From Armatimonadota bacterium (GTDB taxonomy: Bacteria; Armatimonadota; Zipacnadia; Zipacnadales; UBA11051): a stretch of 28,645 nucleotides of DNA. Position numbers and translations under genes: made by a program. How positions within the stretch are numbered: the first letter of the stretch is position 1; each line of letters starts with the position of its first letter. Below, piece after piece: positions 1-23,121 of the stretch. The DNA is taken from assembly GCA_030612305.1 (NCBI GenBank), contig JAUWOG010000001.1:1-28645 (forward strand), in the 5' to 3' direction. Below the pieces are notes generated by a model. That model had not been told where the DNA came from, searched no databases, and was given only the letters and a program-made list of their open reading frames with translations.

Positions 1-105
1 GGCCCGGTGGTCGCGCTGCAAAGCAGCGAACTCCCGATGGGCGGCGTCCTGTTTGCGCTGACGAACATCGAGCGCAGTCTGGAGAGGAAAGTCGAATGCT
101 TTCAT
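1..105 (-). CDS. fliJ: Flagellar export chaperone FliJ, 5' part (runs off the left edge)
   Basis: ATG at 105 reads MKAFDFPLQTALDVRQRKQDAAHREFAALQRDHRA, matching the FliJ N-terminal pattern M-x-x-F-x-F-x-L-Q-x-x-L-x-x-R ... A-x-x-E-[FL]-A. It is preceded by sigma28- and sigma54-type promoters. Not in the supplied ORF track because it is truncated. Confidence 0.8.
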   Translation of the reverse strand, partial: MKAFDFPLQTALDVRQRKQDAAHREFAALQRDHRA

Positions 106-166
106 GATTCGCCTTGGGAGACGCGCCACAAGTGACGGCCACATAGGTATTGCCGTTGTGGAGGAT

Positions 167-194
167 TTATCGGCATGACGCGCCTGTTGCTTGA
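167..194 (-). promoter_or_regulatory. sigma28 (FliA/SigD)-type promoter upstream of fliJ
   Basis: Minus strand reads TCAAG (194-190), a 15-nt spacer, then GCCGATAA (174-167). The -10 element is a perfect match, and the geometry is identical to the site upstream of cheY. Confidence 0.8.
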
Positions 195-200
195 GTAGGC

Positions 201-216
201 TGCAAAAATGGTGCCA
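201..216 (-). promoter_or_regulatory. sigma54 -24/-12 promoter upstream of fliJ
   Basis: Minus strand TGGCAC-CATTT-TTGCA is an exact match to TGGCAC-N5-TTGCW. Confidence 0.85.
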
Positions 217-252
217 AGATGGTGGGGATTTGTGGGGGAGGGCGAGGGGGGA

Positions 253-2775
253 CTAAGGGGTCTTGACGGTGACCGGGGAGGATATGTCGAGCCAGGTGAG
301 TTCGAGGTCGCCGACCTTGATTGCGCCGGCGTCCTGGGACCAGGTAATCGGCTGCTCCTCATCCTCAGGCAGGAGCGCCTGATAGACGGCTGCGAAGGCC
401 GTGCTCTGCGCGCGGCGGCGAACAATCGTGGCGTCTATCGTCTCCGTCGGCATCCAGCCGAGGCCCTTTGCGGCGAAAACCTGCGTCTGCGGGCCGCCGG
501 ACATCCACAGCTTCAGCCGCTGCTTCTCCGTCTGCCAGGTCATCTCCCAGGGCTCGTCAGTCTCGGCCATGCTCGCGTCCGTGTGCTCCGTGTAGCCATT
601 TCGCCAGCCCTTGCCGAGCTGGTCAGTCGCGGCCAGCGGAAGAGCTGTGGTCCTCTCCCCTATCGCGTGGAAAAGCCAATCCCAGGTGTGCTCGGCGTCG
701 GCCTCGACCTGGTAGAGGTCAATGACCGTCTTGCCGTCGGCGGAGAGGACGAAAGTGCGGCGGAAACGGATGTCGCCCTCGGTGTCGGTGATGGACGCGA
801 GCTTCACCGGGCCGTCCTCGAAGACGATGAGCTCGCCGGGCCGGGGGTAGCGCTTCGACGGCGCAGGAGCGGCGCTGTTGCTGTCCACGACGATGGTGTT
901 ATGCGACGAAACGTTCTTGTAGTAGGTCCAGTAGCCCTTCATGTTGTAGTCGGGGGTGTCGAGGTCGGGGATGAGGTACTCGCCATTGGCGAACATGAGG
1001 AAGGAGAGCCCGTCGGGATGGCCGTGGGCACCGAAGTGCTTGTGGAAGACGGCCATGAGATACGTCTGGTCGGCGAAGCGCTCGGCCTCGGAGCGGAGGA
1101 TCGCCCAGCCGGTGTCGCGGAGTGCGATGGAAGGCTGAGCCGAGGCGTTATCCTCGTAGATGGCGAAGATGTCGTCACCGTAGATTTCGTGGGCCTTGCG
1201 GAGCTTGGCCGTAACGCTGATACCCTTCTCGCGGGCGCGGTTGTCACCGATGGCCGGCACGCGCAGGTCCGGCATGGCGGTCTTCGCATAGGACTCCAGG
1301 ATCGTCTTCATGGACTTGTTGCCGAAGTCGTGGTTCCACAGATCAATGCCCAGGTCGCGCCTGGTCATGTCGGCGAGCACGATGAAATAGTTGAAGACGA
1401 AGTCCTGGTAGCCGAAGGTCTTCTCGTTCCAGATACCGTCGGCGTTGAAGAGGTCGTGGATATAGCGGCCCATTATGCCATTGAGCGCGTCGTCCACCAT
1501 CTCCTTGCGGCCGATGGTCATGCCGAAGCGGTAAGTTTCGTAAGCGCCCCTGCCGCCATAGTTGGAGACGCCCTCCTTGCGCCTGGGTGGCGTGCGGGGT
1601 TCCAGATAGCGGTCAACAATCGAGGTGCGCCGGTCGGCGTTCCAGCCGGGCCAGTCCCAGATGAGGTCGAGGGCATTGATGAACTGGCGATGGATCGTGC
1701 CGCCGTTCCACATCGCGTCAGAGAAATCGCCGTAGCTAATCGGGCGGATCTTGTCGTAGTAGCTGTCGGCGAAGAACTCGAGGGCGGCGGCGGCCTGCGC
1801 AGCGTACTTGTCCTCGGCGGTGTAGGCCCAGGCGTAGGCACAGGCGCGCAAGTCGCTCCCCATCCGCGCCGAAGCAGTCATCACCCAGCCATTGTCATAT
1901 ACCGCGCCCTCGTAGTTCTTGTCGCATTTGGCGCAGTAATGCCACTTGGGCCTCTCCGCGTCAAATGTCAGCGCGATGATGTGAATCGGGCAATTAGTGT
2001 GGGTCGTCTTGTTGGGATTCCCGTAGGGCAGAGAGAGCTCTTTGCCCTCCCAGCGCTGGATGAAAGCGTCCGCCTGGTCAATGTACTCCTGCGCCGCAGC
2101 AGTCGGCTTCTCGGCACATGCCTTGCGGGCATTCTCGAGACCCTCGGGGCCGCCAAGATCGAGGAAGGGATGCTGCACCTGGGGCATCTCGAACTCGATA
2201 GGAATAGGAACGGGCGGGCCCTGGTCCGGCTTCGGGAGAAGCTCGGCAAGGTGGCGGGCCTTCGGGGCCTCGAGGACGGCGATGTTGTCCAGATAGCCGC
2301 TGCGCGAGGGCGTCGGAGGGTCTTCGCGGACGTAGAGGTATATCTTTAGGGCCTGGATTTGCGTGCCGGCCTTCAGCTTGTCGAAGTGCATCGAGCGGCG
2401 CGGACCGATGAGGCGAGCATAGGTGGCCGCCCAGCCCGACCTCGTCGCCTGGACCGAGGCGTACCACCTCCCGTCAGTGTCCTGGACGGCGAGGTAGTAC
2501 GCGCCCAGGTCCTTTGCGGCGCAGGTGATGTAGGTGTCTTCGGTGACCGTGAACTCGACGGGGCGCTGAATGGCACCCGTCGGAGTACCGTTGAGCTTCA
2601 GAGCCTGCCTGCCGTCGAAGACCGGCTCAGTGACGATCTCGGCGGTGCCCTCGATGGCCTGCCACACTCCGAGGCCATCCTCGAAGGTATCGAGCAGGAT
2701 GAGTTGCTGGGTAGTGGCGACCACAGGCAGCATCCAGCAGGCAATAAGCAGCAGCAGTGCGCGTGGCTTGTGCAA
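253..2775 (-). CDS. Secreted heparinase II/III-like polysaccharide lyase (N-terminal beta-sandwich, alpha-toroid and Hepar_II_III-like C-terminal region)
   Basis: 840 aa with a TTG start and a hydrophobic signal peptide (MHKPRALLLLIACWMLPVVA). Motifs HGHPDGLSF, PDLDTPDY and SSHNTIVVD are typical of heparinase II/III and oligo-alginate-lyase C-terminal domains. A CPIH...CAKC motif is also present. Confidence 0.8.
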   Translation of the reverse strand: MHKPRALLLLIACWMLPVVATTQQLILLDTFEDGLGVWQAIEGTAEIVTEPVFDGRQALKLNGTPTGAIQRPVEFTVTEDTYITCAAKDLGAYYLAVQDTDGRWYASVQATRSGWAATYARLIGPRRSMHFDKLKAGTQIQALKIYLYVREDPPTPSRSGYLDNIAVLEAPKARHLAELLPKPDQGPPVPIPIEFEMPQVQHPFLDLGGPEGLENARKACAEKPTAAAQEYIDQADAFIQRWEGKELSLPYGNPNKTTHTNCPIHIIALTFDAERPKWHYCAKCDKNYEGAVYDNGWVMTASARMGSDLRACAYAWAYTAEDKYAAQAAAALEFFADSYYDKIRPISYGDFSDAMWNGGTIHRQFINALDLIWDWPGWNADRRTSIVDRYLEPRTPPRRKEGVSNYGGRGAYETYRFGMTIGRKEMVDDALNGIMGRYIHDLFNADGIWNEKTFGYQDFVFNYFIVLADMTRRDLGIDLWNHDFGNKSMKTILESYAKTAMPDLRVPAIGDNRAREKGISVTAKLRKAHEIYGDDIFAIYEDNASAQPSIALRDTGWAILRSEAERFADQTYLMAVFHKHFGAHGHPDGLSFLMFANGEYLIPDLDTPDYNMKGYWTYYKNVSSHNTIVVDSNSAAPAPSKRYPRPGELIVFEDGPVKLASITDTEGDIRFRRTFVLSADGKTVIDLYQVEADAEHTWDWLFHAIGERTTALPLAATDQLGKGWRNGYTEHTDASMAETDEPWEMTWQTEKQRLKLWMSGGPQTQVFAAKGLGWMPTETIDATIVRRRAQSTAFAAVYQALLPEDEEQPITWSQDAGAIKVGDLELTWLDISSPVTVKTP

Positions 2776-2838: not shown

Positions 2839-3085
2839 CGCGAAAGGCAAAGGCGAAAGGCAAAGGCAAAAGGCGAGAAGGGTAAGGTAAACGGCAAACG
2901 GCGAAAGGCAAAAAGGGTAAGGTAAACGGCAAAGGCAAAGGCAACACCGTGGGGCTCTGCCCCACTCCCCGCTGGGGTCAGAATCCCCAGACCCCCCGCT
3001 TCGCTACGCGAAGCGCAAAGAAAGGCAAAGGCGGAAGCGAGAAGAGTAAGCTAAACGGCAAAGGCGAAAGGCAAAGGCGAACGGC
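2839..3085. repeat. REP/MITE-like element: triple-hairpin core flanked by purine-rich AAGGC(A/G)A tracts
   Basis: Hairpins: TGGGGC-TCT-GCCCCA (2950-2964), CTGGGG-N7-CCCCAG (2972-2990), GCTTCGC-TAC-GCGAAGC (2998-3014). The 21-mer AAGGGTAAGGTAAACGGCAAA occurs at 2878 and 2913, with a 2-mismatch copy at 3042. Confidence 0.75.
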
Positions 3086-3139
3086 ACGGCAGGTCGAGTT
3101 CGGCGGGGCGGGGAATATCACCGGCAAGGAGGGATACCA

Positions 3140-4378
3140 ATGAGCTTTGATGAGGTGAAAGCCGGACTGCTCGAGGAAATCACGGAGTTCGAGATAATTG
3201 ACTGCCACGAACATCTGGGGCCCGAAAGCTCCCGTACAAGTACGGAAGTGAGCGCGCTGAATCTCTTCGGCCACTACACGCACCTGGACCTGAATACCGC
3301 CGGCATGAGTGAAGCCGACTACGGAAAGCTGCATGACAGCGACTACCCGCTCGAGTATCGCTGGGGTCTCTTCCGGCCATACCTGGATGAGGTCCGGTTC
3401 GGGTCTTATGCGCGGGCCGCGTTCATTGCGGCGAAGGAACTCTACGGCTTCGATGACATCAGCGACGAGACCTACCAGGAGCTCTCAGCGGCGATGCAGG
3501 AGGCCAATACGCCCGGGATCTATGAGCGTATCCTGCGGGACAAATGCAAGATCCGCTGCAGCCTGACGCAGTGTGGCAGCACCGACCTCGACAGCGAAAT
3601 CCTCATTCCGCTGATGCCGACGACCAACTATTGCAGCATCACAGCCTGGGAGCAAGTGGTCGAGCGGGCGAGGAATCTCGGCCGCAGCGTCAGTACGCTC
3701 GATGAATATGTGGCGCTGATGGATGCCGGGCTGGCGAAGTGGTGCGCCGAGGGAGCAGTCGGCGTCAAGAGCCGCTGTAACCCCTACCCGGATGGCGACC
3801 GGCAGCAGGCAGTCGAGGCGTTCGAGGCGCTGCGGACCGGAACAGTCGCCACCATCCCCGAGTTACACCCGCTGAATACCTGGCTGATGGAGCGGCTCTT
3901 CGAGTTGGCCCCGAAGCACGATATGGTCGTCGCAGTTCATGCCGGCATGTGGGGCAACTTCACGCTGCTCGATGTCAAGCACATGATCCCGTTCTTCATG
4001 CGCCATCCGGAGACCACCTTCGACCTGTACCACCTGAGCTTCCCGTCCGTGCACGACGCGGTCATCGCCGGCAAGAACTTCGCGAACGTCTATACGAACC
4101 TGTGCTGGACGCATATCATGTCGCCGACGATGACGCGGCAGGGGATGCGGGAACTGCTGGACTTCGTGCCCGTCAATAAGGTCTTCGCGTTCGGGGCCGA
4201 CTACGGCTCGCAGGCAGTGGACAAGGTCATCGGGCACCTGCGGATGGCGCAGGACAATATCGCCCACGTGCTGGCCGAGCGCGTCACCGATGGCCTGATG
4301 ACTTCGGCGCAGGCGGTCGAGATCGCGCACAAGTGGTTCTGGGATAATCCGGTGAAGGCCTATGGGTTGGAGGTGTAG
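3140..4378 (+). CDS. Amidohydrolase family protein (TIM-barrel metallo-hydrolase, Amidohydro_2/uronate-isomerase-like)
   Basis: 412 aa with an N-terminal D-C-H-E-H metal motif, later VHAG, LYHL and FGADY motifs, and an RBS-like GGAGGG before the ATG. Confidence 0.85.
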   Translation: MSFDEVKAGLLEEITEFEIIDCHEHLGPESSRTSTEVSALNLFGHYTHLDLNTAGMSEADYGKLHDSDYPLEYRWGLFRPYLDEVRFGSYARAAFIAAKELYGFDDISDETYQELSAAMQEANTPGIYERILRDKCKIRCSLTQCGSTDLDSEILIPLMPTTNYCSITAWEQVVERARNLGRSVSTLDEYVALMDAGLAKWCAEGAVGVKSRCNPYPDGDRQQAVEAFEALRTGTVATIPELHPLNTWLMERLFELAPKHDMVVAVHAGMWGNFTLLDVKHMIPFFMRHPETTFDLYHLSFPSVHDAVIAGKNFANVYTNLCWTHIMSPTMTRQGMRELLDFVPVNKVFAFGADYGSQAVDKVIGHLRMAQDNIAHVLAERVTDGLMTSAQAVEIAHKWFWDNPVKAYGLEV

Positions 4379-4485: not shown

Positions 4486-4977
4486 CTATCTATCAGCTTT
4501 CTCGACGGCCCTCTCAATCCAACGTCCGAGGTTTGCGTAGCCGTCGTCGCTGAGGTAGTCGTAGGTGTCGTATAGCGCGGACAGAGGGCGATTGAGGCCA
4601 GGTGCCGGGACTTTGATCTGCTCCAGCGGGTCTGGACCCTTTCTGCCGATTCTGCCCTGCTTGTTTCCGAGATTATGGATGTGAACGCCCACAAGGCCTT
4701 TGCCGTCGCTGTAGCTTTTCTCAATTTCGTACTTGACCCATTTTCTTTCCCATGTATGCGCGCCGATCAGGACTACGGTCACAGAAGTGCCCTTGAGCCC
4801 GGCATCAATCATCCTTCGCACCGCTCCGTCGCCCCTCGTCTGGGTCTCTTCCCAAAGAGACTGGTCGCAAAACCCCGCAGCCTCCCGGTCTTGCGTTACC
4901 CAACTTAGCCTAACTTGATTCGCACGCCAAATGTCGTCTGTCTCGTAGTGAAAGCTGAAAAACACTCTTCGCACCAT
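4486..4977 (-). CDS. TIR-domain protein, ThsB/DUF1863 (MTH538)-like
   Basis: Starts RRVFFSFHY, then SLWEE, GTSVTVVLIG and WVKYEI (the position of the catalytic Glu in ThsB-type TIRs). RBS AAGGAGG precedes the ATG. Confidence 0.9.
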   Translation of the reverse strand: MVRRVFFSFHYETDDIWRANQVRLSWVTQDREAAGFCDQSLWEETQTRGDGAVRRMIDAGLKGTSVTVVLIGAHTWERKWVKYEIEKSYSDGKGLVGVHIHNLGNKQGRIGRKGPDPLEQIKVPAPGLNRPLSALYDTYDYLSDDGYANLGRWIERAVEKADR

Positions 4978-5066
4978 CAGAAACCCTCCTTGTCACTGTG
5001 CGTTTGCCGCGACCCATTCGTGACCGTGTCACACTACTCCTCGAACTCAGCTTGACCAACTTACTT

Positions 5067-5096
5067 ATTCTATAATGCCGTCTCGTTAGGTGTCAA
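5067..5096 (-). promoter_or_regulatory. sigma70-type promoter for the TIR gene
   Basis: Minus strand TTGACA (5096-5091), 18-nt spacer, TAGAAT (5072-5067), about 90 nt upstream of the TIR start codon. Confidence 0.6.
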
Positions 5097-5117
5097 GATG
5101 ATTGTGAAAAACTCTCA

Positions 5118-5549
5118 TCAGTTTACCAGAAGCGCCACCGTGTAGATAGACAATAGCAGCAATAGCGAGCCATAGAAGAGGCCCAATGTGATCGTGAACA
5201 TGACGTCGCAAACGGACGGAACCTGGTCCTGGAACCTGTGGGCATTCATGTCGAAGAGGTGCTCGTCGGTCTGCAGCCTGTTCTCTACTATCCATTCGTA
5301 CAGCTTCCTGTACATTCGTTCCTGTCTGAGGAAATAGGCGTCCAGAATCCAGAAGACAACCAGCGGCAGGTAGGCAATAAATACCTGTGTTGCTTCCCCT
5401 TTCAAGAGCAGCGTGGCTACAATCAGCGTCACGGTCCAGCCCTTTATCAGGAAGGAATTCGAAGCCATGCGCTTGATTATGGACTGCACGATGCGCACTT
5501 CTTCGAGCATGAACTCCTTGAGGGTGTCATGGTCAAGGTCCATCTTCAT
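5118..5549 (-). CDS. Small 3-TM membrane protein, candidate TIR-associated effector
   Basis: 143 aa with three hydrophobic segments (about aa 33-49, 56-74 and 116-142). The pattern RMASNSFLIKGW ... FWILDAYFLRQERMYRKLY is one I recall from uncharacterised proteins encoded beside DUF1863 TIR genes (not verified). Confidence 0.75.
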   Translation of the reverse strand: MKMDLDHDTLKEFMLEEVRIVQSIIKRMASNSFLIKGWTVTLIVATLLLKGEATQVFIAYLPLVVFWILDAYFLRQERMYRKLYEWIVENRLQTDEHLFDMNAHRFQDQVPSVCDVMFTITLGLFYGSLLLLLSIYTVALLVN

Positions 5550-5701
5550 CGCCCTACTATCCTGAAGTTGCCCACTGGGGTTGCCTGGGCCAACTTCTCA
5601 TTGTGGACAAGCCGATAGATTGCCGCAGAACAGACACTGTCATAGTTCGCAATCCGGAGGGGATAATCCTGCCTCTACCCTATGCTCTTCTTTGCCTGGG
5701 T

Positions 5702-6535
5702 TCACTCCCGGTGCTCGGTGGTGAGTTGGGGAGGGGATGCGGTGAAGAGGTCGCCCTGAAGTGGGAGGACCTTGTCGCTGATGAGGGGCGCGAAGTCGGC
5801 GTTGAGCTCGTAGCCGACCGAGTCGCGGCCCTCCAGCGCGGCGGCCAGAGAGGTCGTGCCGCTGCCGAGGAATGGGTCGAGGACCGTCTCGCCGAAGAAG
5901 CTGTACATCTTGATGAGGCGGCGCGGTAGCTCCACCGGGAACATCGCGACGTGGCTCCGCTGGCGCTCCGGGGCGATGTCATCCCAGATGCCCCGGAACC
6001 ATTTGCTGCGCTGCTCCTTGGTGAGGCGGCTCTGCTCTTTGGCCTCCAGAGAAGGCTGGGGCCACTTGCCCGGCTTGCGGAACAGCAGGATGTACTCGTG
6101 CTCGTAGGTGACATGCCCGTCGCGCGGGTAGTATATCGAGCCCATGAGTTGGCCGCCGCCGGTGGTGTTGGTGGTCGAGACCTTGCGCCAGATGATGTTG
6201 CCCATGAAGTCGAAATCGAGGCGGCGGCAGAGGATTATCAGGTCGGCGGGGATCGGCTGGACCCGGTAGCGGCCATGCTCGGAGGCGCGGAGGTACTGGT
6301 CGCCGATGTTGACGGCGAAGCGGCAGCCCTCATGCAGCACGCGGAAGGTCTCGGCGAAGACCTCGCCGAGCGCGGCGAGGTATTCGTCGTAGGACTGCTC
6401 GAAGCCGATCTGGCCCGGGTGCGCGTAGTCCTTGAGGCACCAGTACGGCGGCGAGGTGACCGCGAAATGGATGGAGGCATCGAGCAACTCCGGCATCGTT
6501 CGCGCGTCGGCGAAGATGATTCTGTGGCTCGTCAT
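5702..6535 (-). CDS. Site-specific DNA methyltransferase, beta class (N4-C or N6-A), apparently orphan
   Basis: The catalytic motif TSPPY near the N-terminus precedes the SAM-binding motif VLDPFLGSGTT near the C-terminus, which is the beta-class order. HVAMFP motif also present. Confidence 0.9.
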   Translation of the reverse strand: MTSHRIIFADARTMPELLDASIHFAVTSPPYWCLKDYAHPGQIGFEQSYDEYLAALGEVFAETFRVLHEGCRFAVNIGDQYLRASEHGRYRVQPIPADLIILCRRLDFDFMGNIIWRKVSTTNTTGGGQLMGSIYYPRDGHVTYEHEYILLFRKPGKWPQPSLEAKEQSRLTKEQRSKWFRGIWDDIAPERQRSHVAMFPVELPRRLIKMYSFFGETVLDPFLGSGTTSLAAALEGRDSVGYELNADFAPLISDKVLPLQGDLFTASPPQLTTEHRE

Positions 6536-6537
6536 TG

Positions 6538-7281
6538 CTAGTCGCCGGCGATCTCGCAGGTCACACTGACGCGGGCGGTTATCTGCACCAGGCCGGCCTC
6601 TATCGCGGTTGTAGCGCCGCCACCCGCACCAGACCCGGCGACATTCATCATCTGCATCTGCCTGCGTGGCGCGTATTGGCCGACATCCTGGACACTGACG
6701 TTGGTGAAGCCGACGAGACGGAGGTCGAGCGTCGCCGCGAGCGCATGGGCCTTGCGGCGGGCATCTTTTGCGGCCGCCAGCATCGCCTCCTCCTTGTACT
6801 TGGCCTGGTCCTTGACGAAGATCTCGAGGCCGCCGACCTCATTGGCACCATTCTGGACGGCGGTGTCAATGATAGTCGCCGCGCGCCTGCTGAGCTCCTC
6901 CGGCGGGGCATTCGTGACGCGGATGGTGAGCTCGTTCTTGACCTGGTAGCCGATGATCTTGGGCGGGATGAGGTCGCGGGAGTTTTTGTCCTCGACGATG
7001 GTGGAGACATCGAAGCCGACGCTCTTCATCGTCATGTCCTCGTACTTGAGCGCCGCGATCGCTTTGAGGACGCGGTCGAAGGTCTCCGCGTTGTTCTGGC
7101 GGGCAGCGGACAACTCCGAGGAGATGCTCCGCACGCCGACATGGACGCGCACATTGTCGGGCTTCACGTAGATCGTCGCCTCGCCGCTGATATGGAGCAG
7201 GTTCGGCGGCTGGTCCGCGGCTCCACACATCGTTGCCGCGATGAGTAACAGCACCGTCACGGGGATGAGATATCTGGTCAT
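6538..7281 (-). CDS. SIMPL/DUF541 (YggE-like) exported protein
   Basis: Start re-called at ATG 7281 (RBS GAGGAGG, signal peptide MTRYLIPVTVLLLIAA). Motifs ISGEATIYVKPD, GYQVKNELTIRV and AAKDARRKAHALA are SIMPL hallmarks. Confidence 0.88.
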   Translation of the reverse strand: MTRYLIPVTVLLLIAATMCGAADQPPNLLHISGEATIYVKPDNVRVHVGVRSISSELSAARQNNAETFDRVLKAIAALKYEDMTMKSVGFDVSTIVEDKNSRDLIPPKIIGYQVKNELTIRVTNAPPEELSRRAATIIDTAVQNGANEVGGLEIFVKDQAKYKEEAMLAAAKDARRKAHALAATLDLRLVGFTNVSVQDVGQYAPRRQMQMMNVAGSGAGGGATTAIEAGLVQITARVSVTCEIAGD

Positions 7282-7327
7282 CTTGCTGGCCTCCTCTGTC
7301 TGGTTTCGGACGGCTGATGGCGCGGAG

Positions 7328-7660
7328 CTATAGTTGCAGGGCCCACCGGAGCATCCTCTCGACTTCGGCCATGTCGAGGTCGCTGAGGCGTCCGGGGCTG
7401 CGGAGTACATTCGCGCGAGTGGTGGTGAAGGGCTTGGGCCGGACGGTGCTCGGTTTCAGCAGATGCGCGGCTTCCCAATCGCGCAAGGCCACCTCGTTGT
7501 CATTCCGAGGCGGGTCGTTCACGATCCCGGCGACGATGATATCGTTGTCCCTCTTGTGGTATTGTGAGGCGCTGATGACTACGCCGAGGCGGATCTCTGC
7601 GCCGGTCCCATTTGTGGAGGGCATGGACACGACGACGACGTCACCCCTCCTCAACGCCAT
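7328..7660 (-). CDS. Type II toxin, PemK/MazF family
   Basis: Start re-called at MALRRGDVVVV (RBS GGAGGG). EIRLGVVIS corresponds to the K-x-R-P-x-x-V motif, followed by LLKPSTVR and GRLS...VERML. Confidence 0.85.
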   Translation of the reverse strand: MALRRGDVVVVSMPSTNGTGAEIRLGVVISASQYHKRDNDIIVAGIVNDPPRNDNEVALRDWEAAHLLKPSTVRPKPFTTTRANVLRSPGRLSDLDMAEVERMLRWALQL

Positions 7661-7952
7661 AGATTTCCCTCCAGTTCTCATAGATCGCGTCTTCCTCGTC
7701 GTCCCATATCTCACTGGCCGCGGCGCCAGTCAGCCGCTGGAAGTCCTCGAGTTCATCGTCGTCCGCTTCGGGCGGTCGCGGCGCGTCGCCACCAGCCTTG
7801 ATCCAGTTGAGAAGCTGCGAGCGCGAGAAGCGCCACTGTCTCCCGACCTTCGCGGCCGGAAGCTGCCTCGCGCGAGCCTTGCGCAGTATCGTCTGGACCC
7901 CGACGCTGAGCAGTTCGGCCGCTTCGTTGGCTGTCAGAACGTCCTTAGGCAT
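7641..7952 (-). CDS. Probable antitoxin: N-terminal Xis/HTH_17-type winged HTH fused to an acidic C-terminal peptide
   Basis: VLTANEAAELL...TILRKARARQLPAAKVGRQWRFSRSQL is an excisionase-type HTH. The C-terminal SEIWDDEEDAIYENW is acidic, and the gene overlaps the toxin start by 20 nt. Confidence 0.75.
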   Translation of the reverse strand: MPKDVLTANEAAELLSVGVQTILRKARARQLPAAKVGRQWRFSRSQLLNWIKAGGDAPRPPEADDDELEDFQRLTGAAASEIWDDEEDAIYENWREIYGVEEG

Positions 7953-7969
7953 TACGTCCTCCTCTGATA

Positions 7970-15235: not shown

Positions 15236-15297
15236 ATGCGGGGGCGCGGGGAGAAGCCGTGCCTACCGAAGTGTCGCGCAACTTAGGGGGAGTCGTC

Positions 15298-15666
15298 TCA
15301 AGCGGCCGCGGAGAGCAGGCGCTGGACTATCTCAAGGACCTTCTCCGGCTCGAACGGCTTGACCACGTATTCGCAGGCTCCGGCCTTGACCGCCTCGAGT
15401 ACCATCTGCTGCTGCCCCAGCGCCGAGCAGATGACCACCTTCGCCGAAGGGTCTTTCTCGATGATCGCTTTGGGCGCGCCGATCCCGTCAAGGCCCGGCA
15501 TCGTGATATCCATCAGCACCAGGTCGGGCTTCTCGGCCTCATAGGCGGCAACGCCGGCCTCGCCGTCCGGGGCCTCACACGTCTGATAGCCGACGCCATC
15601 GAGAATACTGCACAACATCTTGCGCATGTAGAGGGCGTCGTCAACGGTCAGTATCTTGGCAGACAT
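15298..15666 (-). CDS. cheY: Chemotaxis response regulator CheY (Bacillus/Thermotoga-like)
   Basis: Single receiver domain: VDDALYMR, LMDITMP (phospho-Asp), SALGQQ and VVKPF. Confidence 0.9.
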   Translation of the reverse strand: MSAKILTVDDALYMRKMLCSILDGVGYQTCEAPDGEAGVAAYEAEKPDLVLMDITMPGLDGIGAPKAIIEKDPSAKVVICSALGQQQMVLEAVKAGACEYVVKPFEPEKVLEIVQRLLSAAA

Positions 15667-16018: not shown

Positions 16019-17377
16019 ATGTTGCGAATGGAAACTGTAGTGGCCCCGAATGCCTCCCCCGCTGTTCTCCCCCAGGTTGTTGCACAAAGCGCCCTTCTGG
16101 AACTGGCGGCCCTCGAGCTTGAAGAGAAAGTCAAGGAAGAGCTGGAGGAGAACCCCGCCCTCGAATTCAAGAACGAAACGCTGCCGCCGATTGACTACTT
16201 ACCGGCGCCGAATCTTCCGCGTGGCCCGGCCGGCCGGGACGACGCCCACGGCTCCGACGCATGGGCCAATCTGGCGGATACCTACACACTCCGGGACGAC
16301 CTCAAGCGCCAGTTCCGCGCCCAGAATCCCAGCGACCACTATCCCATCGGCGAACTTCTCATCGAGGCCATAGACGAAGACGGCTATCTGGCCATTTCTG
16401 TCGAGGAGGCCGCGGAGACCCTCTGCGTCGCCTGCGCGGAAGTCGAGCAGGCACTCGACGCCATCCACGATCTTTCTCCGTGCGGCCTTGGCGCTCGCAG
16501 CCTCGTCGAGTGTCTCCGGCTGCAACTGGAATGCCTTGAGCCATCTCGCCTCCCCGAGGGTGTAGAAGCCGTCATCGAAGCCATGCCGTACCTCAGCGAA
16601 CAGTCTCTCCGGGGCGCTGCGAATTGCATCACCGAACTGAAGGCGATGACGAGACTCTCCCCCTCCCGGCTCCGCAGCGCACTGGAATTCATCCGCAAGC
16701 ATCTCTCTCCCTATCCCGGCCGCGCCTTTCACGAGCCCTGGGAAGGAGCGAAGCACGAAACCCAGTACGTTTACCCCGATGTCGTGCTCTCGCTGGGGCT
16801 GGAAGATGACATCATCATCTCGATACCCCAGTCGGAGCGGCTCGCATTGCGCATCAGCGGCGCGTACCAGCGGCTTGACAACCAACTACGCGCTGCCTGT
16901 ATTCGCACCCGCGACGAGCGCCTCAAAGACGCCCGCAGGCAAGTGCGCGAGGCCCGCCAGTTCATCGAGAATCTCACCCGCCGATATCGCACCACCTATC
17001 AGGTCATGAGCGCGATTATTGACCGGCAGAGCGAGTTCATCCGCAGCGGCCCCGCACACCTCAAGCCGCTCAGCAAGAAGGAGATCGCACAGAGCATCAG
17101 CATCCATGAGGCCACAGTCTGCCGCGCAACTAAGGGCAAGTATGTCCTGATGCCTGACGGGCGGCTGGAAGAGATAGACATATTCTTCGATGACGCCCTG
17201 CCAGCGAGGAGCCTGATTCGCCGGCTGGTCAACTCCGAGGACAAATTGAAGCCGCTGTCGGATCGCCGCCTCCAGGACGAGCTCTGCCGGCGCGGCTTCG
17301 ACCTGGCCCGCCGCACTGTCACCAAGTACCGCCTCCAACTCGAGATCCCCTCGGCGAGCCGCCGCCGGGCGGCATAG
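16019..17377 (+). CDS. rpoN: RNA polymerase sigma-54 factor RpoN
   Basis: Region I (PQVV...ELEENPALE), HTH KPLSKKEIAQSISIHEATVCRA, PLSDRRL and RpoN box ARRTVTKYR. Confidence 0.95.
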   Translation: MLRMETVVAPNASPAVLPQVVAQSALLELAALELEEKVKEELEENPALEFKNETLPPIDYLPAPNLPRGPAGRDDAHGSDAWANLADTYTLRDDLKRQFRAQNPSDHYPIGELLIEAIDEDGYLAISVEEAAETLCVACAEVEQALDAIHDLSPCGLGARSLVECLRLQLECLEPSRLPEGVEAVIEAMPYLSEQSLRGAANCITELKAMTRLSPSRLRSALEFIRKHLSPYPGRAFHEPWEGAKHETQYVYPDVVLSLGLEDDIIISIPQSERLALRISGAYQRLDNQLRAACIRTRDERLKDARRQVREARQFIENLTRRYRTTYQVMSAIIDRQSEFIRSGPAHLKPLSKKEIAQSISIHEATVCRATKGKYVLMPDGRLEEIDIFFDDALPARSLIRRLVNSEDKLKPLSDRRLQDELCRRGFDLARRTVTKYRLQLEIPSASRRRAA

Positions 17378-17510
17378 CCCGCAGCGGGCGTCGCCTGTCA
17401 GTGCTGTTTGCCGCGATGTCGTAGTGGAGGGCCCGGCCGACGGGCGGAAACGTGGCTTCCCCAGGGAGACCGGCCCGCGCAAGAGACGACCCCACCAGGA
17501 CCCACATCAC

Positions 17511-17526
17511 TGGCACACCTATTGCA
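17511..17526 (+). promoter_or_regulatory. sigma54 -24/-12 promoter upstream of flgB
   Basis: TGGCAC-ACCTA-TTGCA, exact consensus. Confidence 0.88.
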
Positions 17527-17664
17527 GTGTATCGCATGACCAGAGTGGGGGATGGGGGAGAGCCGCGCGGGCACCCACGCCGGAGGCGTAGGTCAGGCGT
17601 CCAGCCTGACGGCGTTGGCAGCCCCACGGAATCGCAGATGCGCGCAGAAAGCGCAGGAGAAAAA

Positions 17665-18066
17665 ATGGCGCAACGAGCCATGTTGTCAGACATCACTGTT
17701 GCCGCGCTGGCAAAGGGCCTCGATGGCGCTTATGCTCGCCAGCTTGCCATCGGTGACAATCTGGCGAATGTCGAGACGCCCAACTACCAGGCGAAGCGAG
17801 TGAGCTTCGAGGCCAGTCTCCGCGCGGCCATCGGTGCCGAGAGGTCCGCCCGGGGCGCTGGACGCGGCCGCAGGCGCATCGAAGACGTCCTCCCGCACGT
17901 GCAGCGCACCACCGCCACCTGGAGGCGGGATGGCAACACGGTGGATCTCGAGACTGAGATGGTCGCGATGGCAAAAACCTCGCTGCACTACCGGATGCTG
18001 TCGCGACTGATGGCCAAGAAGTTCCGCATGATGGCGCGGACGCTGAACGGGGGCGGTGGCCAGTGA
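17665..18066 (+). CDS. flgB: Flagellar basal-body rod protein FlgB
   Basis: DNLANVETPNYQAK and RRDGNTVDLETEM motifs. Start re-called at ATG 17665 (RBS AGGAG). Confidence 0.93.
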   Translation: MAQRAMLSDITVAALAKGLDGAYARQLAIGDNLANVETPNYQAKRVSFEASLRAAIGAERSARGAGRGRRRIEDVLPHVQRTTATWRRDGNTVDLETEMVAMAKTSLHYRMLSRLMAKKFRMMARTLNGGGGQ

Positions 18067-18458
18067 GCATCTTTCGGGCTATGGACGTGAGCGGCAGCGG
18101 CCTCCGTGCGCAGCGTGTGCGCATGGACACCATCGCCGAGAATATCGCCAACGCCGAGACTACGCGCACCGCCGAGGGCGGCCCCTATCGCCGCCTGCGA
18201 GTGCTGGTAGCGCCCGCCGATGACAGCAGCGGCGGCGTCCAGCTAGTCGCCGTCATGCCCGATGAGGGCCCCCTGAAGCAGGTCTATGACCCGTCCCACC
18301 CGGATGCCGACGAGCAGGGCTACGTGCAGATGCCGAACGTGGATATCGCCACCGAGATGGTGGACATGGTGACTGCCAGCCGGGCCTACGAAGCCAATGC
18401 GAAGGCACTCGCGATGGCACGGGCGATGGTGCGGGACGCCATAGACATTCTCACCTGA
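18063..18458 (+). CDS. flgC: Flagellar basal-body rod protein FlgC
   Basis: SGSGLRAQRVRMDTIAENIANAETT, YDPSHPDAD, PNVDIATEMVDM and YEAN motifs. GTGA overlap with flgB. Confidence 0.96.
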   Translation: MSIFRAMDVSGSGLRAQRVRMDTIAENIANAETTRTAEGGPYRRLRVLVAPADDSSGGVQLVAVMPDEGPLKQVYDPSHPDADEQGYVQMPNVDIATEMVDMVTASRAYEANAKALAMARAMVRDAIDILT

Positions 18459-18464
18459 TGACAA

Positions 18465-18519
18465 CTATGCACAAGCTCACTATCCACTTCTTCCACAAAC
18501 TTATCCACAACTCACCACA
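18465..18519 (+). promoter_or_regulatory. Cluster of DnaA-box-like 9-mers in the flgC-fliE gap
   Basis: Perfect TTATCCACA at 18501, with co-oriented variants CTATGCACA (18465), CTATCCACT (18480), TCTTCCACA (18489) and a weak CTCACCACA (18511). Confidence 0.45.
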
Positions 18520-18613
18520 CGAAGCTCAAGCATCACCTCCACCGCCGTCGCCGCATCAGTAGTCTCCAGCCACCGCCACTCACCTGCCGGAATCCGGGAC
18601 CAGGAGTAAGAGC

Positions 18614-18988
18614 ATGCCGATACGCCCCGTGCAAACAGATGCCAGGCTCCTTGAGAGCGCAATGCCTGCCGGCGGTTCGGGGTCGCTTGAGAGCCGGCCC
18701 ATCAGGCCTCTGGAGCCGCTGTCTCCGGGCGGGCCGACAACTCGAACCGACAGCGCGGAGACGGGGAGCAACACCTTCGGAGACCTCCTTCACGGCGCGT
18801 TGCGGCAGGTCAATGAGCTCCAGGTCGAGGCCGATCACCAGGCGGAGCTGCTGGCCACCGGCGAGGCACAGAACCCGCATGACGCTGTCATCGCCATGGA
18901 GAAGGCTGATCTGGCGCTGCAACTGACCATCAGAATCACTGAGAAGGCCCTCTCCGCTTATCAGCAGGTCAGCCAGATACAAATCTAG
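18614..18988 (+). CDS. fliE: Flagellar hook-basal body protein FliE
   Basis: FGDLLHGALRQVN, HDAVIAMEKADLALQL and AYQQVSQIQI. RBS AGGAG. Confidence 0.93.
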   Translation: MPIRPVQTDARLLESAMPAGGSGSLESRPIRPLEPLSPGGPTTRTDSAETGSNTFGDLLHGALRQVNELQVEADHQAELLATGEAQNPHDAVIAMEKADLALQLTIRITEKALSAYQQVSQIQI

Positions 18989-19029
18989 ATAACTGACGGC
19001 GGGGGCGTACCCCGCTTTACATCAACGGC

Positions 19030-20676
19030 ATGAAAGATCAGATTTCGGAAATATGGGCGCGTTTCGATACTCGCCAGCGCTGCACCGTAGTCGCACTCGG
19101 CCTCCTGACTGCTGTAATGCTCGGATTGGTCGCGCGCCGCTCGCTGCAGCCTGATTGGGCGCTGCTTTACGGTGGCCTACAGCCTGAAAGCGCCTCTGCG
19201 ATCGTCGAAGAACTCGGCTCCCGGAATATCCCCTACAGCCTCAGCCGCCAGGGCACTGCAGTCATGGTCGAGAGGACCCGCCTCTACGAACTCCGCCTCG
19301 AACTGGCCGGCAAGGGCCTCCCCAACAGTACCGGCGTCGGCTTTGAGATATTCGACCGCACCTCTTTGCCCGGCACCGAGTTCTCCAACCACGTCAATAT
19401 GCAGCGCGCGCTGCAGGGCGAACTCAGCCGCTCCATCAACTGCATTGACGAGGTCGTCGCCTCACGCGTCCATCTCGTCCTGCCTAAGGAGTCGCTGTAC
19501 GGGGAGAACGCACAAGCCTCCGCCTCCGTGGTCTTGAGCCTCCGCCCCGGCGCCCGCCTTGCCCAGCGCCAGGTGCAGGGCCTGGTCAACCTCGTCGCCG
19601 CCGCCGTCGAGGGCCTCAAGCCTCAAGCCGTCATCGTCGTTGACGCCGGCGGCAATATCATCTCCTGCGGCGATGAAGACGGCCTCGGGCGCGGTCAGAT
19701 GACCTCCGCCCAACTGGACACCACACAGGCCTTCGAAGAAAACCTCCGCGGCGAGCTCCAGTCCATGCTCGATGCCGTCATCGGGCCCCACAAGGCCATA
19801 GTGAGAGTCCAGGCAGAACTGGATTTCGACACCGAGCAGGTGCAGTCGGAGACATACACGGAACCGCTCGGCGCGAATCAGGGCCTCACCTCGGCTCACA
19901 TCGTCGAGGAGACCTACGAGGGCGGGGGCACACCCGGCGGAGTTGGCGCAGGCATCTCGGCTAACATGCCGGGCGGGATGATGTCGGGTACGCCTTCTGC
20001 CGGCGGCAAGTACCTCTCCCGCGAGGAGACCCACAAGTACGAGCTGTCGCGGGAACTCGTCGAGAAGACTATCGCCGCGGGCACGCTCAAGCGCCTGACT
20101 GTCGCCGCCATCGTTGATCAGGAGACGGCCTCTGCAGACGTCGCCAAGGTCAAGGAACTCCTCGAAGCCGCCTCCGGATATGACGAGGCACGCGGCGACA
20201 AGCTCGTCATCCAGACCATGGCGATTGCCGCCATAAAGATTGCTGAAGAATCGGAGAAGGAGGCGGAAGAGGCTGCAGCGGCTCAGAAACGTCAGGAGCA
20301 ACTTGGCATGATGGCGCACTACGGTTCCGGGCTGCTGGCATTCATCGTGCTCGGCGCTGCGATCCTCTTCGGCTCGCGCCAGGTGCGCAACGCCGTCGCC
20401 GCCGTCAGCCTCCCCGCTCAGACGCCACCGGACGGCGCGCCTCCGCAGTCACAGCAGGCCGCCGGCGCCTCGTCCGTGCCGCACTTGCCCGCCTCAGCGC
20501 AGCAGCCTGCGGACACGGCGGCGGCCCGCCGCGTGCAGGAGGGTGCGGTCCTCGACGCGGGCAAAGCCGCCGGCCTATCCAACGAGGAGCTCACACAAAT
20601 CGTGCGCAATATGGCCACCGAGCGCCCCGAGGCCGTGGTCAAGCAGCTGGAGCTCTGGCTCAGCGGCAAGGAGTAG
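19030..20676 (+). CDS. fliF: Flagellar MS-ring protein FliF
   Basis: N-terminal TM, LRLELAGKGLP, GFEIFD, QRALQGELSRSI, ARVH-like SRVHLVLP, a second TM, and a C-terminal PEAVVKQLELWL. Confidence 0.96.
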   Translation: MKDQISEIWARFDTRQRCTVVALGLLTAVMLGLVARRSLQPDWALLYGGLQPESASAIVEELGSRNIPYSLSRQGTAVMVERTRLYELRLELAGKGLPNSTGVGFEIFDRTSLPGTEFSNHVNMQRALQGELSRSINCIDEVVASRVHLVLPKESLYGENAQASASVVLSLRPGARLAQRQVQGLVNLVAAAVEGLKPQAVIVVDAGGNIISCGDEDGLGRGQMTSAQLDTTQAFEENLRGELQSMLDAVIGPHKAIVRVQAELDFDTEQVQSETYTEPLGANQGLTSAHIVEETYEGGGTPGGVGAGISANMPGGMMSGTPSAGGKYLSREETHKYELSRELVEKTIAAGTLKRLTVAAIVDQETASADVAKVKELLEAASGYDEARGDKLVIQTMAIAAIKIAEESEKEAEEAAAAQKRQEQLGMMAHYGSGLLAFIVLGAAILFGSRQVRNAVAAVSLPAQTPPDGAPPQSQQAAGASSVPHLPASAQQPADTAAARRVQEGAVLDAGKAAGLSNEELTQIVRNMATERPEAVVKQLELWLSGKE

Positions 20677-20727
20677 CGGCGCAAGCTGGACTGTGCCCGG
20701 GCTCGGCTTACAACCAGATGGTTGATA

Positions 20728-20928
20728 ATGAATTGGCGCAGGCTGAGCAGACTGCTGGTAATTGCGTTGGCGGTATTCGGGGGCATAGCCCTGGCTGCCG
20801 TTGTGCTAATCGCACTGTGCGGTCCGACGCTGAGTACTCAGCGGCTCGTGGCGTTCTTCACGACTATGTTCGCAGTGACCGGCGCGGCAGTGACTGTTGC
20901 GGTTCTGGTTGTCACTGACCGTGGCTAG
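20728..20928 (+). CDS. Small 2-TM hypothetical protein between fliF and fliH
   Basis: 66-aa ORF MNWRRLSRLLVIALAVFGGIALAAVVLIAL...LVAFFTTMFAVTGAAVTVAVLVV with two hydrophobic helices. It fills the fliF-fliH gap in frame order with the operon. Confidence 0.55.
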   Translation: MNWRRLSRLLVIALAVFGGIALAAVVLIALCGPTLSTQRLVAFFTTMFAVTGAAVTVAVLVVTDRG

Positions 20929-20956
20929 TACCTACTGGCTTACTCAGGCCTCCAAC

Positions 20957-21754
20957 ATGCCTCGGACAACCAACATGGCAACGGACCAGCATACCACACA
21001 GAACTCGCGTGACAGCGGCGACGCGGAGCATTTCCAGCCCCGCCACCTCGCTGTCGGCGTGGACGATGCGGCCTGCGCCGAGGCGACACGCTTCCAGCCG
21101 TGCGTTCTGGGTGAGGTCATCGAGCCGGGCGCAGACCCGAGCGCGCAGCAGTCCGGCCGGCCGGGATTCCTGGAGGCGCACCAGCAGGCCGAGCACATCC
21201 TCGAAGAGGCCCGCCGGCAAGCCGACCACCTCCAGCAGGAAACCCAGGACCAGATCGAGATACTGCTGCTGCGACGCGCCGGAGAGGAAACCGAGGCCGT
21301 CCGCCGGGAGCAGACTGCGCGCTTCGAGCAGGCCGCCCATGCGCTCATCGAGCAGTTCCGCCAGGATGCCGGCGCCGCGCTCGAAGAACTCTCCGCACAG
21401 GTGGCGGAGCTGGCGGCCGGCATCACCGCAAAGATCATCCACCGCCACATCGCCGCCGATGACCGCATCGTGCTCGATATCGTCTCAGAGGCGCTCGGGC
21501 GGCTCGCTGACATCAGTCGCCTGCGAATCGTCATCAATCCCGCCGACGAGCCGGCCATCGCGGAGCACCGCGACGAGCTGCTGGCACAGGTCTCCGGCCT
21601 CGACGGGCTCGACATCGTCACTGACGCGGACGTCGAGCGCGGCGGCTGCCTCCTTGACAGCGACCGGGGCGAGGTTGACGCCCGCCTCAGCTCCCAGCTC
21701 GAGCTTATCTGGAAGCGCGTCTCGGCAAGCGATGTGCTGAGAAAGACGGCGTGA
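20957..21754 (+). CDS. fliH: Flagellar assembly protein FliH (start uncertain: 20957 or 20975)
   Basis: Coiled-coil AEHILEEARRQA, IAxKII-like ITAKII, IVINPAD and C-terminal VERGGCLLDSDRGEVDARL. It precedes fliI with a GTGA overlap. Confidence 0.88.
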   Translation: MPRTTNMATDQHTTQNSRDSGDAEHFQPRHLAVGVDDAACAEATRFQPCVLGEVIEPGADPSAQQSGRPGFLEAHQQAEHILEEARRQADHLQQETQDQIEILLLRRAGEETEAVRREQTARFEQAAHALIEQFRQDAGAALEELSAQVAELAAGITAKIIHRHIAADDRIVLDIVSEALGRLADISRLRIVINPADEPAIAEHRDELLAQVSGLDGLDIVTDADVERGGCLLDSDRGEVDARLSSQLELIWKRVSASDVLRKTA

Positions 21755-23121
21755 GCGAGGCCATGAGCGAAAACGAAATCGCTCGGCTGGTCGGCGACAT
21801 TGACACCATCCGGCGCATCGGACGCGTGAGCCAGACGATCGGCCTCGTCATCGAGTCCGACGGCCCGCCGGCGCGTATCGGCGAGCTGTGCCGCATCTTC
21901 CCCTCACCCGCCGCCACACAGAGAGCGCCGGATACCGAAGGCCGTGCGGCGACGCCGATCCTCGCCGAAGTCGTCGGCTTTCGCCATGACAAGCTGCTCA
22001 TGATGCCGTTCGGCGACACCGAGCAGATCTGCGTCAACAGTGAGGTCGTGCCCACGGGCAAGCCGATGCGCCTGGAGGTCAGCGAGGCGATGCTCGGACG
22101 AGTGCTCGACGGCCTCGGCCGCCCCATAGACGGTATGCCCCTGCCCGCCGGCGGTGAGTCGTATCCCATCACCGCACCGCCGCCGCCACCGATGACCCGC
22201 CGCGCCATCAGCGAGCCGCTGCCGCTCGGCATCCGCGCCATTGATGCGCTCATCACCTGCGGCAAGGGGCAGCGCCTCGGCATCTTCTCCGGCTCCGGCA
22301 TCGGCAAGTCAACGCTCCTGGGCATGATCGCGCGCAACACCGGACGGACCGCCTCCGCCGCCGATGTCAATGTCATCGCACTCATCGGCGAGCGCGGCCG
22401 CGAGCTCCGCGAGTTCATTGACCACTCGCTGGGACCCGAAGGTCTGCGCCGCTCGGTGGTTGTCGTCGCAACCGGGGACAGACCGCCTCTGGTACGCCTG
22501 CGCGGCGCCTATGTCGCCACTGCCATCGCCGAGTACTTCCGCGCCCGGGGGGCCGATGTCCTGCTGATGATGGACTCGGTGACGCGCTTCGCATGGGCGC
22601 AGCGGGAAGTCGGCCTCGCTGTCGGCGAGCCACCGACGCGTGGCGGCTACACGCCCTCGGTCTTCGCCAAGCTGCCGCAACTCCTGGAGCGCTCCGGCAT
22701 GGGCGAGACCGGCTCCATCACCGGCCTCTACACGGTGCTGGTGGACGGCGACGACCTCAACGAACCCGTTGCTGATGCGGTCCGCAGCACTCTCGACGGC
22801 CATGTGGTACTCTCACGCGACCTGGCGACCCGCAATCACTACCCGCCGATTGACGTGCTGGAGAGCGTGAGCCGCCTGACGCCGCGCATCTGCACTCCGG
22901 AGCAGCTTGAGGCTGCCGGCGCGGTCCGCAAGCTCATCGCCGACTACGACGAGGCGGAGGACCTCATCAACCTGGGCGCTTACGAGCATGGCTCGAACCC
23001 CGACGTGGACGCCGCAATTCGCCTCCGCCAGCCGCTCCTGGACTTCCTCCAGCAGTCCTCCGCCGACACCGCCGACTACGCCGCGACCCTCACCCGCCTG
23101 CAGCAGATCCTCGCCGCGTAG
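21751..23121 (+). CDS. fliI: Flagellum-specific export ATPase FliI
   Basis: Walker A GSGIGKST, IGERGRE, LMMDSVTRFA, GEPPTRGGY and HYPPIDVLESVSR. Confidence 0.96.
   Translation: MSEAMSENEIARLVGDIDTIRRIGRVSQTIGLVIESDGPPARIGELCRIFPSPAATQRAPDTEGRAATPILAEVVGFRHDKLLMMPFGDTEQICVNSEVVPTGKPMRLEVSEAMLGRVLDGLGRPIDGMPLPAGGESYPITAPPPPPMTRRAISEPLPLGIRAIDALITCGKGQRLGIFSGSGIGKSTLLGMIARNTGRTASAADVNVIALIGERGRELREFIDHSLGPEGLRRSVVVVATGDRPPLVRLRGAYVATAIAEYFRARGADVLLMMDSVTRFAWAQREVGLAVGEPPTRGGYTPSVFAKLPQLLERSGMGETGSITGLYTVLVDGDDLNEPVADAVRSTLDGHVVLSRDLATRNHYPPIDVLESVSRLTPRICTPEQLEAAGAVRKLIADYDEAEDLINLGAYEHGSNPDVDAAIRLRQPLLDFLQQSSADTADYAATLTRLQQILAA

Follow-up and report, generated by a model that had tools for sequence, protein, structure and literature searches.

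The window analysed here is a stretch of 28,645 bp that makes up the complete contig C541, the longest contig in the bin of an uncultured cold-seep Armatimonadota bacterium (G000), and the element under study is a plasmid-type replication and partition module that is found in it among flagellar genes. G000 is a fragmented metagenome bin of 3.56 Mb in 767 contigs (N50 5.2 kb, 85% complete, 3.7% contamination), with a guanine-plus-cytosine (GC) content of 62.3%. It was compared with eight other species of the same genus (G001–G008, nine congeners in all). The genes in the window were called by Pfam and NCBIfam profile searches. An initial annotation had described a replicon backbone (toxin-antitoxin pair, repA, iterons, partition partner, and parA) flanked by flagellar genes, and the profile searches together with an iteron count confirm this arrangement, all the elements that it named being present.

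The replication gene, repA (8104–9729, minus strand), belongs to the RPA family (PF10134, 45.5 bits versus a cut-off of 27, E=9e-12, residues 34–253), and 79 plasmids of PLSDB, including Deinococcus megaplasmids and planctomycete plasmids, carry homologues annotated as "replication initiator protein A". A sequence search of RepA against PDB gave no match, and a search of PDB found no member of the RPA family with a solved structure. The protein also carries an extra C-terminal module, at about amino acids (aa) 310–541 (window 8104–8799). This module matches, at 27–35% identity, the C-terminal half of a distinct protein (~350–450 aa) with a weak Phage_rep_O N-terminus, which is encoded at G000:C116:18-1346 and G008:C7:121191-122261 and occurs in most of the family genomes searched, but was not found in G003, G005, or G006. 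The shared module may represent a host-factor recruitment domain or a second initiator.

Next to the iteron region lies the partition pair. The gene parA (11416–12264, minus strand) codes for a short Walker-type protein of 282 aa, without an N-terminal DNA-binding domain (AAA_31 E=1e-48 and CbiA, residues 21–250), and its best NCBIfam matches are plasmid-partition RepA/ParA models, with scores below their cut-offs. Overlapping it by 32 bp is the gene of a 163-aa protein (10956–11447, minus strand), a candidate centromere-binding adaptor that adjoins ParA throughout the order. This partner consists of an invariant N-terminal LPGAxDFF peptide, a disordered linker, and a C-terminal EKVTFY...RSQI domain. 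It had no match in Pfam or in PDB sequence searches. In an AlphaFold 2 (AF2) model, the C-terminal domain has a predicted local distance difference test score (pLDDT) above 90 and forms an extended segment followed by three helices, and a Foldseek comparison of the model with PDB gave no match at E<1. The EKVTFY...RSQI pattern suggested a ribbon-helix-helix fold, which Foldseek did not confirm. On the other side of repA there is a toxin-antitoxin pair, both genes on the minus strand, formed by a PemK/MazF toxin (7328–7714, PF02452, 34 bits versus a cut-off of 23) and an HTH_17/excisionase-type antitoxin partner (7641–7952, PF12728 E=3e-15, TIGR01764). Only a remnant of the pair was seen in G008, and nothing of it in G001 or G004.

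Between repA and the partner gene lies a non-coding region of 1226 bp (9730–10955) that we consider a candidate plasmid origin (oriV), with 52% GC versus 62% for the genome. The core TTGTG-N5-ACAC has 12 matches in the window at ≤1 mismatch, versus 3.1 expected, and none of 100 shuffles reached 12. Ten of these matches fall within 9919–10713, an 800-bp stretch upstream of repA, several copies being 21–22 bp apart and the outer copies, at 9919 and 10700, inverted. There are AT-rich minima at about 10000–10060 and 10120–10180, and a conserved block with the palindrome GTCTTGATTCAAGAC at about 10150–10164. A DnaA box was sought in this region and none was found. The spacer between RepA and the partner has 48–53% GC in all five species that have it assembled, and the order and spacing of the iterons and the invariant blocks, including the palindrome GTCTTGATTCAAGAC, are kept in G000, G001, G002, G004, and G007, although dS is >0.8 or saturated across the five species.

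The linkage of repA with flagellar genes was examined in the relatives and is kept in six congeners (G001–G004, G007, and G008), in the order lyase-SIMPL-RepA-partner-ParA-FliM-FliG-CheX-CheY-RpoN. RepA is 72–86% identical in six of the eight other species. Estimated by the Nei-Gojobori method, the ratio of nonsynonymous to synonymous divergence (dN/dS) of RepA is 0.04–0.10, with dS from 1.1 to saturation, in the five species with an intact repA, so that its constraint equals that of FliI and CheY and is tighter than that of FliM, FliG, and FliF. For ParA the values are 0.09–0.21 and for the partner gene 0.16–0.35. The replication and flagellar genes have similar dS within the genus, and from these sequence comparisons the replicon appears to have been vertically co-inherited within it. 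At third codon positions, repA (0.80) and parA (0.77) have the same GC content (GC3) as the flagellar genes. No integrase was found among the window genes and no att site was seen in the window. The Rep/Par module is neither recently integrated nor decaying and has been kept by selection as long as the adjoining flagellar genes. An in-frame stop in the RepA match of G001 was dismissed, as a 527-aa open reading frame (ORF) is open across the match. The RepA match of G003 is truncated by a contig end, and an in-frame stop was reported inside it.

An assembly or binning artefact, either a plasmid contig chimerically joined to flagellar DNA or a misbinned one, would be a natural suspicion in a bin with the fragmentation and contamination given above. 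Nonetheless, the ParA-FliM and RepA-SIMPL junctions recur in six independently assembled metagenome-assembled genomes (MAGs) from different studies, the GC3 of repA and parA is the same as that of their neighbours, and a single cold-seep metagenome run contains 91% of the sampled words of 7400–12600. We regard an artefact as extremely improbable.

The presence of the module also follows that of the motility genes. RepA and rpoN, and with them flagellin and fliM, occur in the same seven of the nine congeneric genomes, and G005 (96% complete) and G006 (89% complete) are without RepA, rpoN, flagellin, and the orthologous FliM. The gene rpoN, the sole sigma-54 gene of G000, is single-copy and at this locus in G000, G002, G003, G007, and G008. 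In other families rpoN is found on large contigs without RepA, and an order-wide co-occurrence of RepA and rpoN was rejected, since family f6 has rpoN without RepA. A second, more divergent FliP paralogue (G000:C520:6494-7063, G008:C20, G005:C43, G006:C53, and G002:C99) was found in each of the five congeneric genomes that were searched for it, including the two without flagellin, rpoN, and RepA, and a FliM-like gene at 27–28% identity was seen in G003 and G005. Going by sequence, the FliP-containing set may be a separate system resembling type III secretion.

We also considered a co-option, in which RepA and its repeats would serve the par and flagellar genes as transcription factor and operators and initiation would have been lost. 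Inverted copies do flank the iteron array, iteron-binding initiators commonly autoregulate via inverted repeats, and seven species show a tight linkage of RepA to the flagellar regulon. Against this, the complete architecture of an initiator has been kept, along with the AT-rich stretch and ParA with its partner; RepA homologues outside the genus occur beside ParA but without flagellar genes; and G008 retains its flagellar genes after having lost the DNA-binding half of RepA. Such a co-option seems to us very unlikely.

The most extensive view of the unit comes from G008, where the locus is on a contig of 171,468 bp (C7). Seventy of its 148 ORFs were annotated by Pfam and 17 by orthology to the window, about 87 in total. 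Besides the plasmid replication gene, C7 has genes for switch, export, rod, hook, ring, filament, cap, and regulators, among them FliP, FlhA, FlhB, an SLT-FliK fusion, FlgE, F, G, H, I, and K, FliD, and FliJ, all three flagellin-family genes found in the G008 genome, a sigma-54 activator, and a sigma-28-like factor. In G000 the flagellar cluster is divided among several contigs; those syntenic to C7, 27 in number, total 167 kb, and the extra genes sampled on them were metabolic or transposase genes. The remainder of C7 comprises a Tad pilus, Wza/Wzz/Wzy/glycosyltransferase genes, a sulfatase, peptidases, transporters, and two-component systems. No informational or ribosomal gene was found among the annotated ORFs of C7, there are no tRNA genes on it, and no Rfam match was obtained in the 120 kb of C7 searched. 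A G000 contig, C81, with homologues of two C7-end genes beside acetate kinase was left unused, the identities being 25–54% and paralogue-like.

The ends of C7 suggest a circular arrangement. In both G000 and G002, fliI is followed by a conserved gene that we call orf567 and then by the orthologue of c7_164389, and in G008 orf567 and c7_164389 are located at the far right end of C7, with the fliI side at the other end. The orientation of these genes fits a circle opened between fliI and orf567; a single inversion predicts the opposite orientation. No terminal overlap was found when sought at the C7 ends, which stop in opposite ends of one multi-copy insertion sequence (IS) with a 31-bp terminal repeat. 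Such ends would result if a single IS closed a circle, and equally from a cointegrate flanked by IS copies, so that either way a circular ancestor is implied. An inverted 20-mer at the C7 ends was at first sight a junction hairpin, an idea that was rejected, as it is the terminal repeat of the same multi-copy IS, which breaks many contigs; alone it says little about circularity. The ~31-bp terminal inverted repeat of this IS-like element, AAAATCTGCATAACTACAGTTCCAGCCCGAG, has 26 matches in G008, 20 in G002, eight in G000, and none in G004, and many contigs end exactly 24–25 nt within the repeat (in G008, for example, C1, C7, C10, C12, C30, and C49).

A smaller contig from another family has a similar content. 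G033:C37 (41.5 kb) carries a RepA 48% identical to that of the window, ParA, the partner gene, and rpoN, and further a sigma-54 activator, Wza/Wzz/glycosyltransferase genes, and a phosphoenolpyruvate carboxykinase (PEPCK)-like gene. Its two ends share one 23-bp tandem array, with an exact overlap of 98 bp, and the array is nowhere else on the contig. The 23-bp repeat, GTTCAGAAACAGGATAGGGACAG and a variant of it, spans the presumed circular junction (L126:1-115; L016 last 200 nt) and could be the centromere or a second iteron set of that plasmid. The PEPCK_ATP-like gene, of 612 aa and 62–70% identical across families, was repeatedly seen linked to the RepA/ParA module (G033:C37 4047–5822; G018:C65 32533–34308; L046 14402–15682; G008:C7 72337–74175), and so were the Wza/Wzz/glycosyltransferase genes, a recurrence which suggests that these genes belong to a cargo core conserved among such replicons throughout the order.

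We favour the reading that the window is part of a low-copy motility megaplasmid of roughly 170 kb, with host-like composition, that is present in some species of the genus and absent from others, and we give this reading a probability of about 65%. A secondary replicon is the best-supported explanation because of the synteny, the selection on RepA and the iterons, the location of dnaA elsewhere, the core-gene-free and permuted C7, the contig G033:C37, and the co-occurrence of the genes. In 39 of 41 relatives dnaA is on contigs other than that of the RepA locus (in G000 on C565), which rules out a DnaA-less lineage replicating its chromosome via RepA. The flagellum-bearing secondary replicon that had been proposed from the window alone emerges from the comparative tests with the best support and is probable for G000. 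As the window is one contig of a fragmented MAG without terminal overlap, we infer its extrachromosomal status in G000 from relatives; how the origin fires and at which copy number are likewise inferred.

The main rival is a chromosomal locus, in which an ancient plasmid or a plasmid-derived flagellar island would have integrated in the ancestor of the genus, Rep/Par being kept for segregation, as a back-up origin, or for excision. It would accommodate several observations: the unit of G008 survives without iterons or an intact RepA, IS copies bound both ends of C7 as in an IS-mediated cointegrate, the composition is indistinguishable from that of the remaining genome, there is no skew inflection, and circular closure was obtained for no congener. 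However, the strong long-term purifying selection on RepA, iterons, ParA, and partner in five species is hard to understand for a silent origin, the genes at the C7 ends adjoin each other in two other species, and the 171 kb of C7 have no tRNA gene and, among the annotated ORFs, no informational gene. Nor does the window show the integrase or att site of an integrated element, and the 41-kb RepA contig of a relative, G033:C37, has overlapping ends. Decay of the replication gene is confined to G008, repA being intact in five species with dN/dS <0.1. We think that a chromosomal locus is unlikely, although it has to be taken seriously.

Several points do weigh against an extrachromosomal replicon. 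A terminal overlap was sought at the ends of the window contig and none was found. Neither the window nor C7 shows an origin signature in skew or strand bias at the iterons. The initial annotation had taken gene orientation to diverge around the origin, but the genes on either side of the iterons are on the minus strand, and the strand switch is at 15.67–16.02 kb, between cheY and rpoN, 5–6 kb off the iterons. It had also expected an inflection of GC skew near 10 kb, where there is none, the cumulative skew peaking near 15 kb and tracking the coding strand. Since skew follows the coding strand in the window and in C7, we discarded skew and strand bias as evidence for an origin. The annotation of C7 covers only about 60% of its ORFs, and none of these was recognised as a relaxase or conjugation gene. 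A rearrangement mediated by IS elements could produce the same picture as the circular permutation of C7. Finally, the G000 contigs syntenic to C7 have 61.8% GC versus 62.3%, with a tetranucleotide correlation of r=0.996, and such a host-like composition suits a chromosomal region equally and is partly forced by binning.

A further objection comes from G008, where the stop of the partner gene has been fused cleanly to RepA codon about 195 by a deletion that takes out the iterons together with RepA residues 1 to about 194, including the invariant DEMNLAEFPF motif. The RepA remnant is still open, with a dN/dS of 0.20. Accordingly, the unit of G008 is either integrated or uses another origin. The Phage_rep_O-like gene on C7, which combines the weak Phage_rep_O N-terminus with a domain homologous to RepA residues about 310–510 and has its orthologue on G000:C116, is a candidate alternative initiator. 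A second origin beside it was considered and rejected, as no repeats were found next to the gene, and this too counts against the replicon.

Taking the RepA contigs of the order together, we put forward tentatively, and with more doubt than confidence, that the RPA/ParA-adaptor replicons are an old, order-wide class that carries a sigma-54 regulon (rpoN and an activator), exopolysaccharide genes, and, in this genus, the whole flagellum. Motility and sigma-54 regulation would then be acquired and lost together, as parts of a single plasmid-borne unit, and G008 would be a case in which the unit was fused with the chromosome by an IS, or another origin took over, before the RepA origin was deleted.

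For the favoured megaplasmid, a mode of maintenance can be proposed from the behaviour of the families involved. RepA would bind the ten or so iterons of the 1.2-kb low-GC region that lies immediately before repA and start an iteron-controlled, theta-type initiation at 9.9–10.7 kb, with unwinding at the AT-rich element that separates the RepA-proximal inverted iteron from the direct array. It would recruit the host helicase, perhaps via the extra C-terminal module. The replicon copies would be partitioned by ParA and the adaptor of 163 aa whose gene overlaps parA, the LPGAxDFF peptide of the adaptor probably contacting ParA and its C-terminal domain, the part modelled with pLDDT >90, probably binding DNA. 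The PemK toxin-antitoxin pair would add post-segregational stability, only in the species of G000. The cargo would be a self-contained motility unit with all the flagellar structural, export, and switch genes, CheY/CheX, the sole sigma-54, a sigma-54 activator, and a sigma-28-like factor, accompanied by genes for a Tad pilus, exopolysaccharide, and carbohydrate use.

The remaining genes of the window lie on the two flanks of the module. At the left end (1–105, minus strand) there is a fragment of fliJ, truncated by the contig end. The fliJ reported on this flank thus amounts to its first 35 codons, which match the start of the FliJ of relatives, being 66–73% identical to the N-terminus of G008:C7:22449-22967 and of the G004 orthologue; the former (172 aa) is FliJ by TIGR02473, with 59 bits versus a cut-off of 50. 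It is followed by two cargo genes assigned by Pfam, a heparinase/alginate-lyase-like gene (253–2775, minus strand) and an amidohydrolase (3140–4378, plus strand). Their GC3, 0.83–0.85, is host-like. The spacer between them has imperfect AAAGGC-type tandem repeats at 2843–2944 and 3057–3086. Next come three genes on the minus strand, likewise assigned by Pfam, a ThsB-type TIR gene (4486–4977), a DUF4395 membrane protein (5118–5549), and an N6/N4 DNA methylase (5702–6535), which together (4486–6535) are an insertion specific to G000, as G001 and G004 have the lyase directly beside the SIMPL gene. The TIR gene has a GC3 of 0.65 versus about 0.8 in the adjoining genes. The SIMPL/DUF541 gene itself (6538–7410, minus strand, PF04402 E=1e-37) is the conserved left neighbour of repA and adjoins RepA in G001, G003, G004, and G008.

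To the right of parA, after a gap of 334 bp by longest ORF (and not the 390 bp or so given before), are fliM, fliG, cheX, and cheY (12599–15666, minus strand, Pfam), in the same order as in G002, G003, G007, and G008. GC skew reaches +0.34 to +0.45 at 12000–13600, in fliM and the parA-fliM spacer, where the coding strand is very C-rich, and the amino acids of FliM are biased towards Pro, Thr, Leu, His, and Ala and away from Gly, Glu, and Lys. On the plus strand there follow rpoN, flgB, flgC, fliE, fliF, fliH, and fliI (16019–23121, Pfam and NCBIfam), FlgB being called by TIGR01396 with 87 bits. Between fliI and the next conserved gene there is a gene of 1199 aa with a low GC3 of 0.65 (23302–26901, plus strand). 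It has a partial match to NF041818 Dsr1, with 54 bits, far under the cut-off, is not at this position in G002 and G008, and is probably a defence-type insertion. The window ends in orf567 (26945–28645, plus strand), a conserved gene of unassigned function and 567+ aa, 79% identical to G008:C7:167638-169485 and 82% to G002:C51:14945-16789. The junction between fliI and orf567 looks like an insertion hot spot in G000, G002, and G008. In G002 (C51, 13.9–14.4 kb) it holds two small genes which by eye resemble a HicA/HicB pair, and in G008, at the two ends of C7, four extra genes and an IS. An Rfam search of the window gave no match.

Flagella encoded on plasmids are not new, and the novelty first claimed for the unit was overstated, since 22 flagellar gene clusters (FGCs) on extrachromosomal replicons have been reported in Rhodobacterales, including 21 of 43 fla2 clusters (doi 10.1101/2025.03.24.645028). 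Like the plasmid-borne FGCs of Rhodobacterales (fla2, e.g., Marinovum algicola), the unit described here combines a full flagellar cluster and a plasmid replication and partition module on one molecule, and strains have or lack motility along with the replicon. The differences are that the host is an uncultured member of Armatimonadota, in which the replicon is probably extrachromosomal, that the initiator is RPA/PF10134 with iterons instead of RepABC, DnaA-like, or RepB, that the replicon carries the only rpoN of the genome and an activator, and that its inheritance within the genus is apparently vertical instead of promiscuous.

With the initiators of Deinococcus megaplasmids and Planctomycetota plasmids (small ones and others up to 578 kb, usually with ParA nearby) RepA shares the family PF10134, but the identity is only 27–37% over residues about 20–400, and the RepA of the window has the extra C-terminal module of ~230 aa, shared with the Phage_rep_O-like family of the same bacteria. 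Type Ib partition systems consist of a short ParA and a small ribbon-helix-helix centromere binder, as in ParF/ParG of TP228 or delta/omega of pSM19035. The pair in the window is similar in its short Walker ParA and in its small overlapping partner, in which a flexible linker connects a conserved N-terminal peptide to a compact C-terminal domain. It differs in that the partner gene comes after parA and not ahead of it in an operator-controlled operon of known type, and the C-terminal domain, confident in AF2, had no Foldseek match.

Chromids, as reportedly defined by Harrison et al. in 2010, are another obvious comparison. The unit resembles them in its plasmid-type replication, in a chromosome-like composition (which binning biases), in being kept in most of the genus, and in carrying a normally chromosomal gene, rpoN. 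Nevertheless, the label of chromid that had been suggested for it is not warranted: no essential or informational gene was found, G005 and G006 are without the whole unit, including rpoN, and rpoN, the only candidate core gene, is located on large RepA-less contigs in other families.

The paper describing Zipacnadia mentions flagellar genes in these MAGs and leaves plasmids unmentioned (PMC10290634), and a search of the literature found no description of a plasmid or multipartite genome in Armatimonadota. What is new here is thus the phylum, the initiator family, the sole sigma-54 on board, and the apparently vertical inheritance. If the favoured reading is true, flagellar motility and the only sigma-54 of these cold-seep and sediment bacteria would be traits of a dispensable 170-kb replicon, which would explain the patchy distribution of motility and sigma-54 among the MAGs, and plasmid-borne flagella would reach beyond Proteobacteria. 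As a defined unit of 4.5 kb, the replication and partition cassette could then serve as a starting point for genetic tools in an uncultured phylum. The reading would also call for caution when traits are inferred from MAGs, as replicons of this kind can be binned or lost en bloc.

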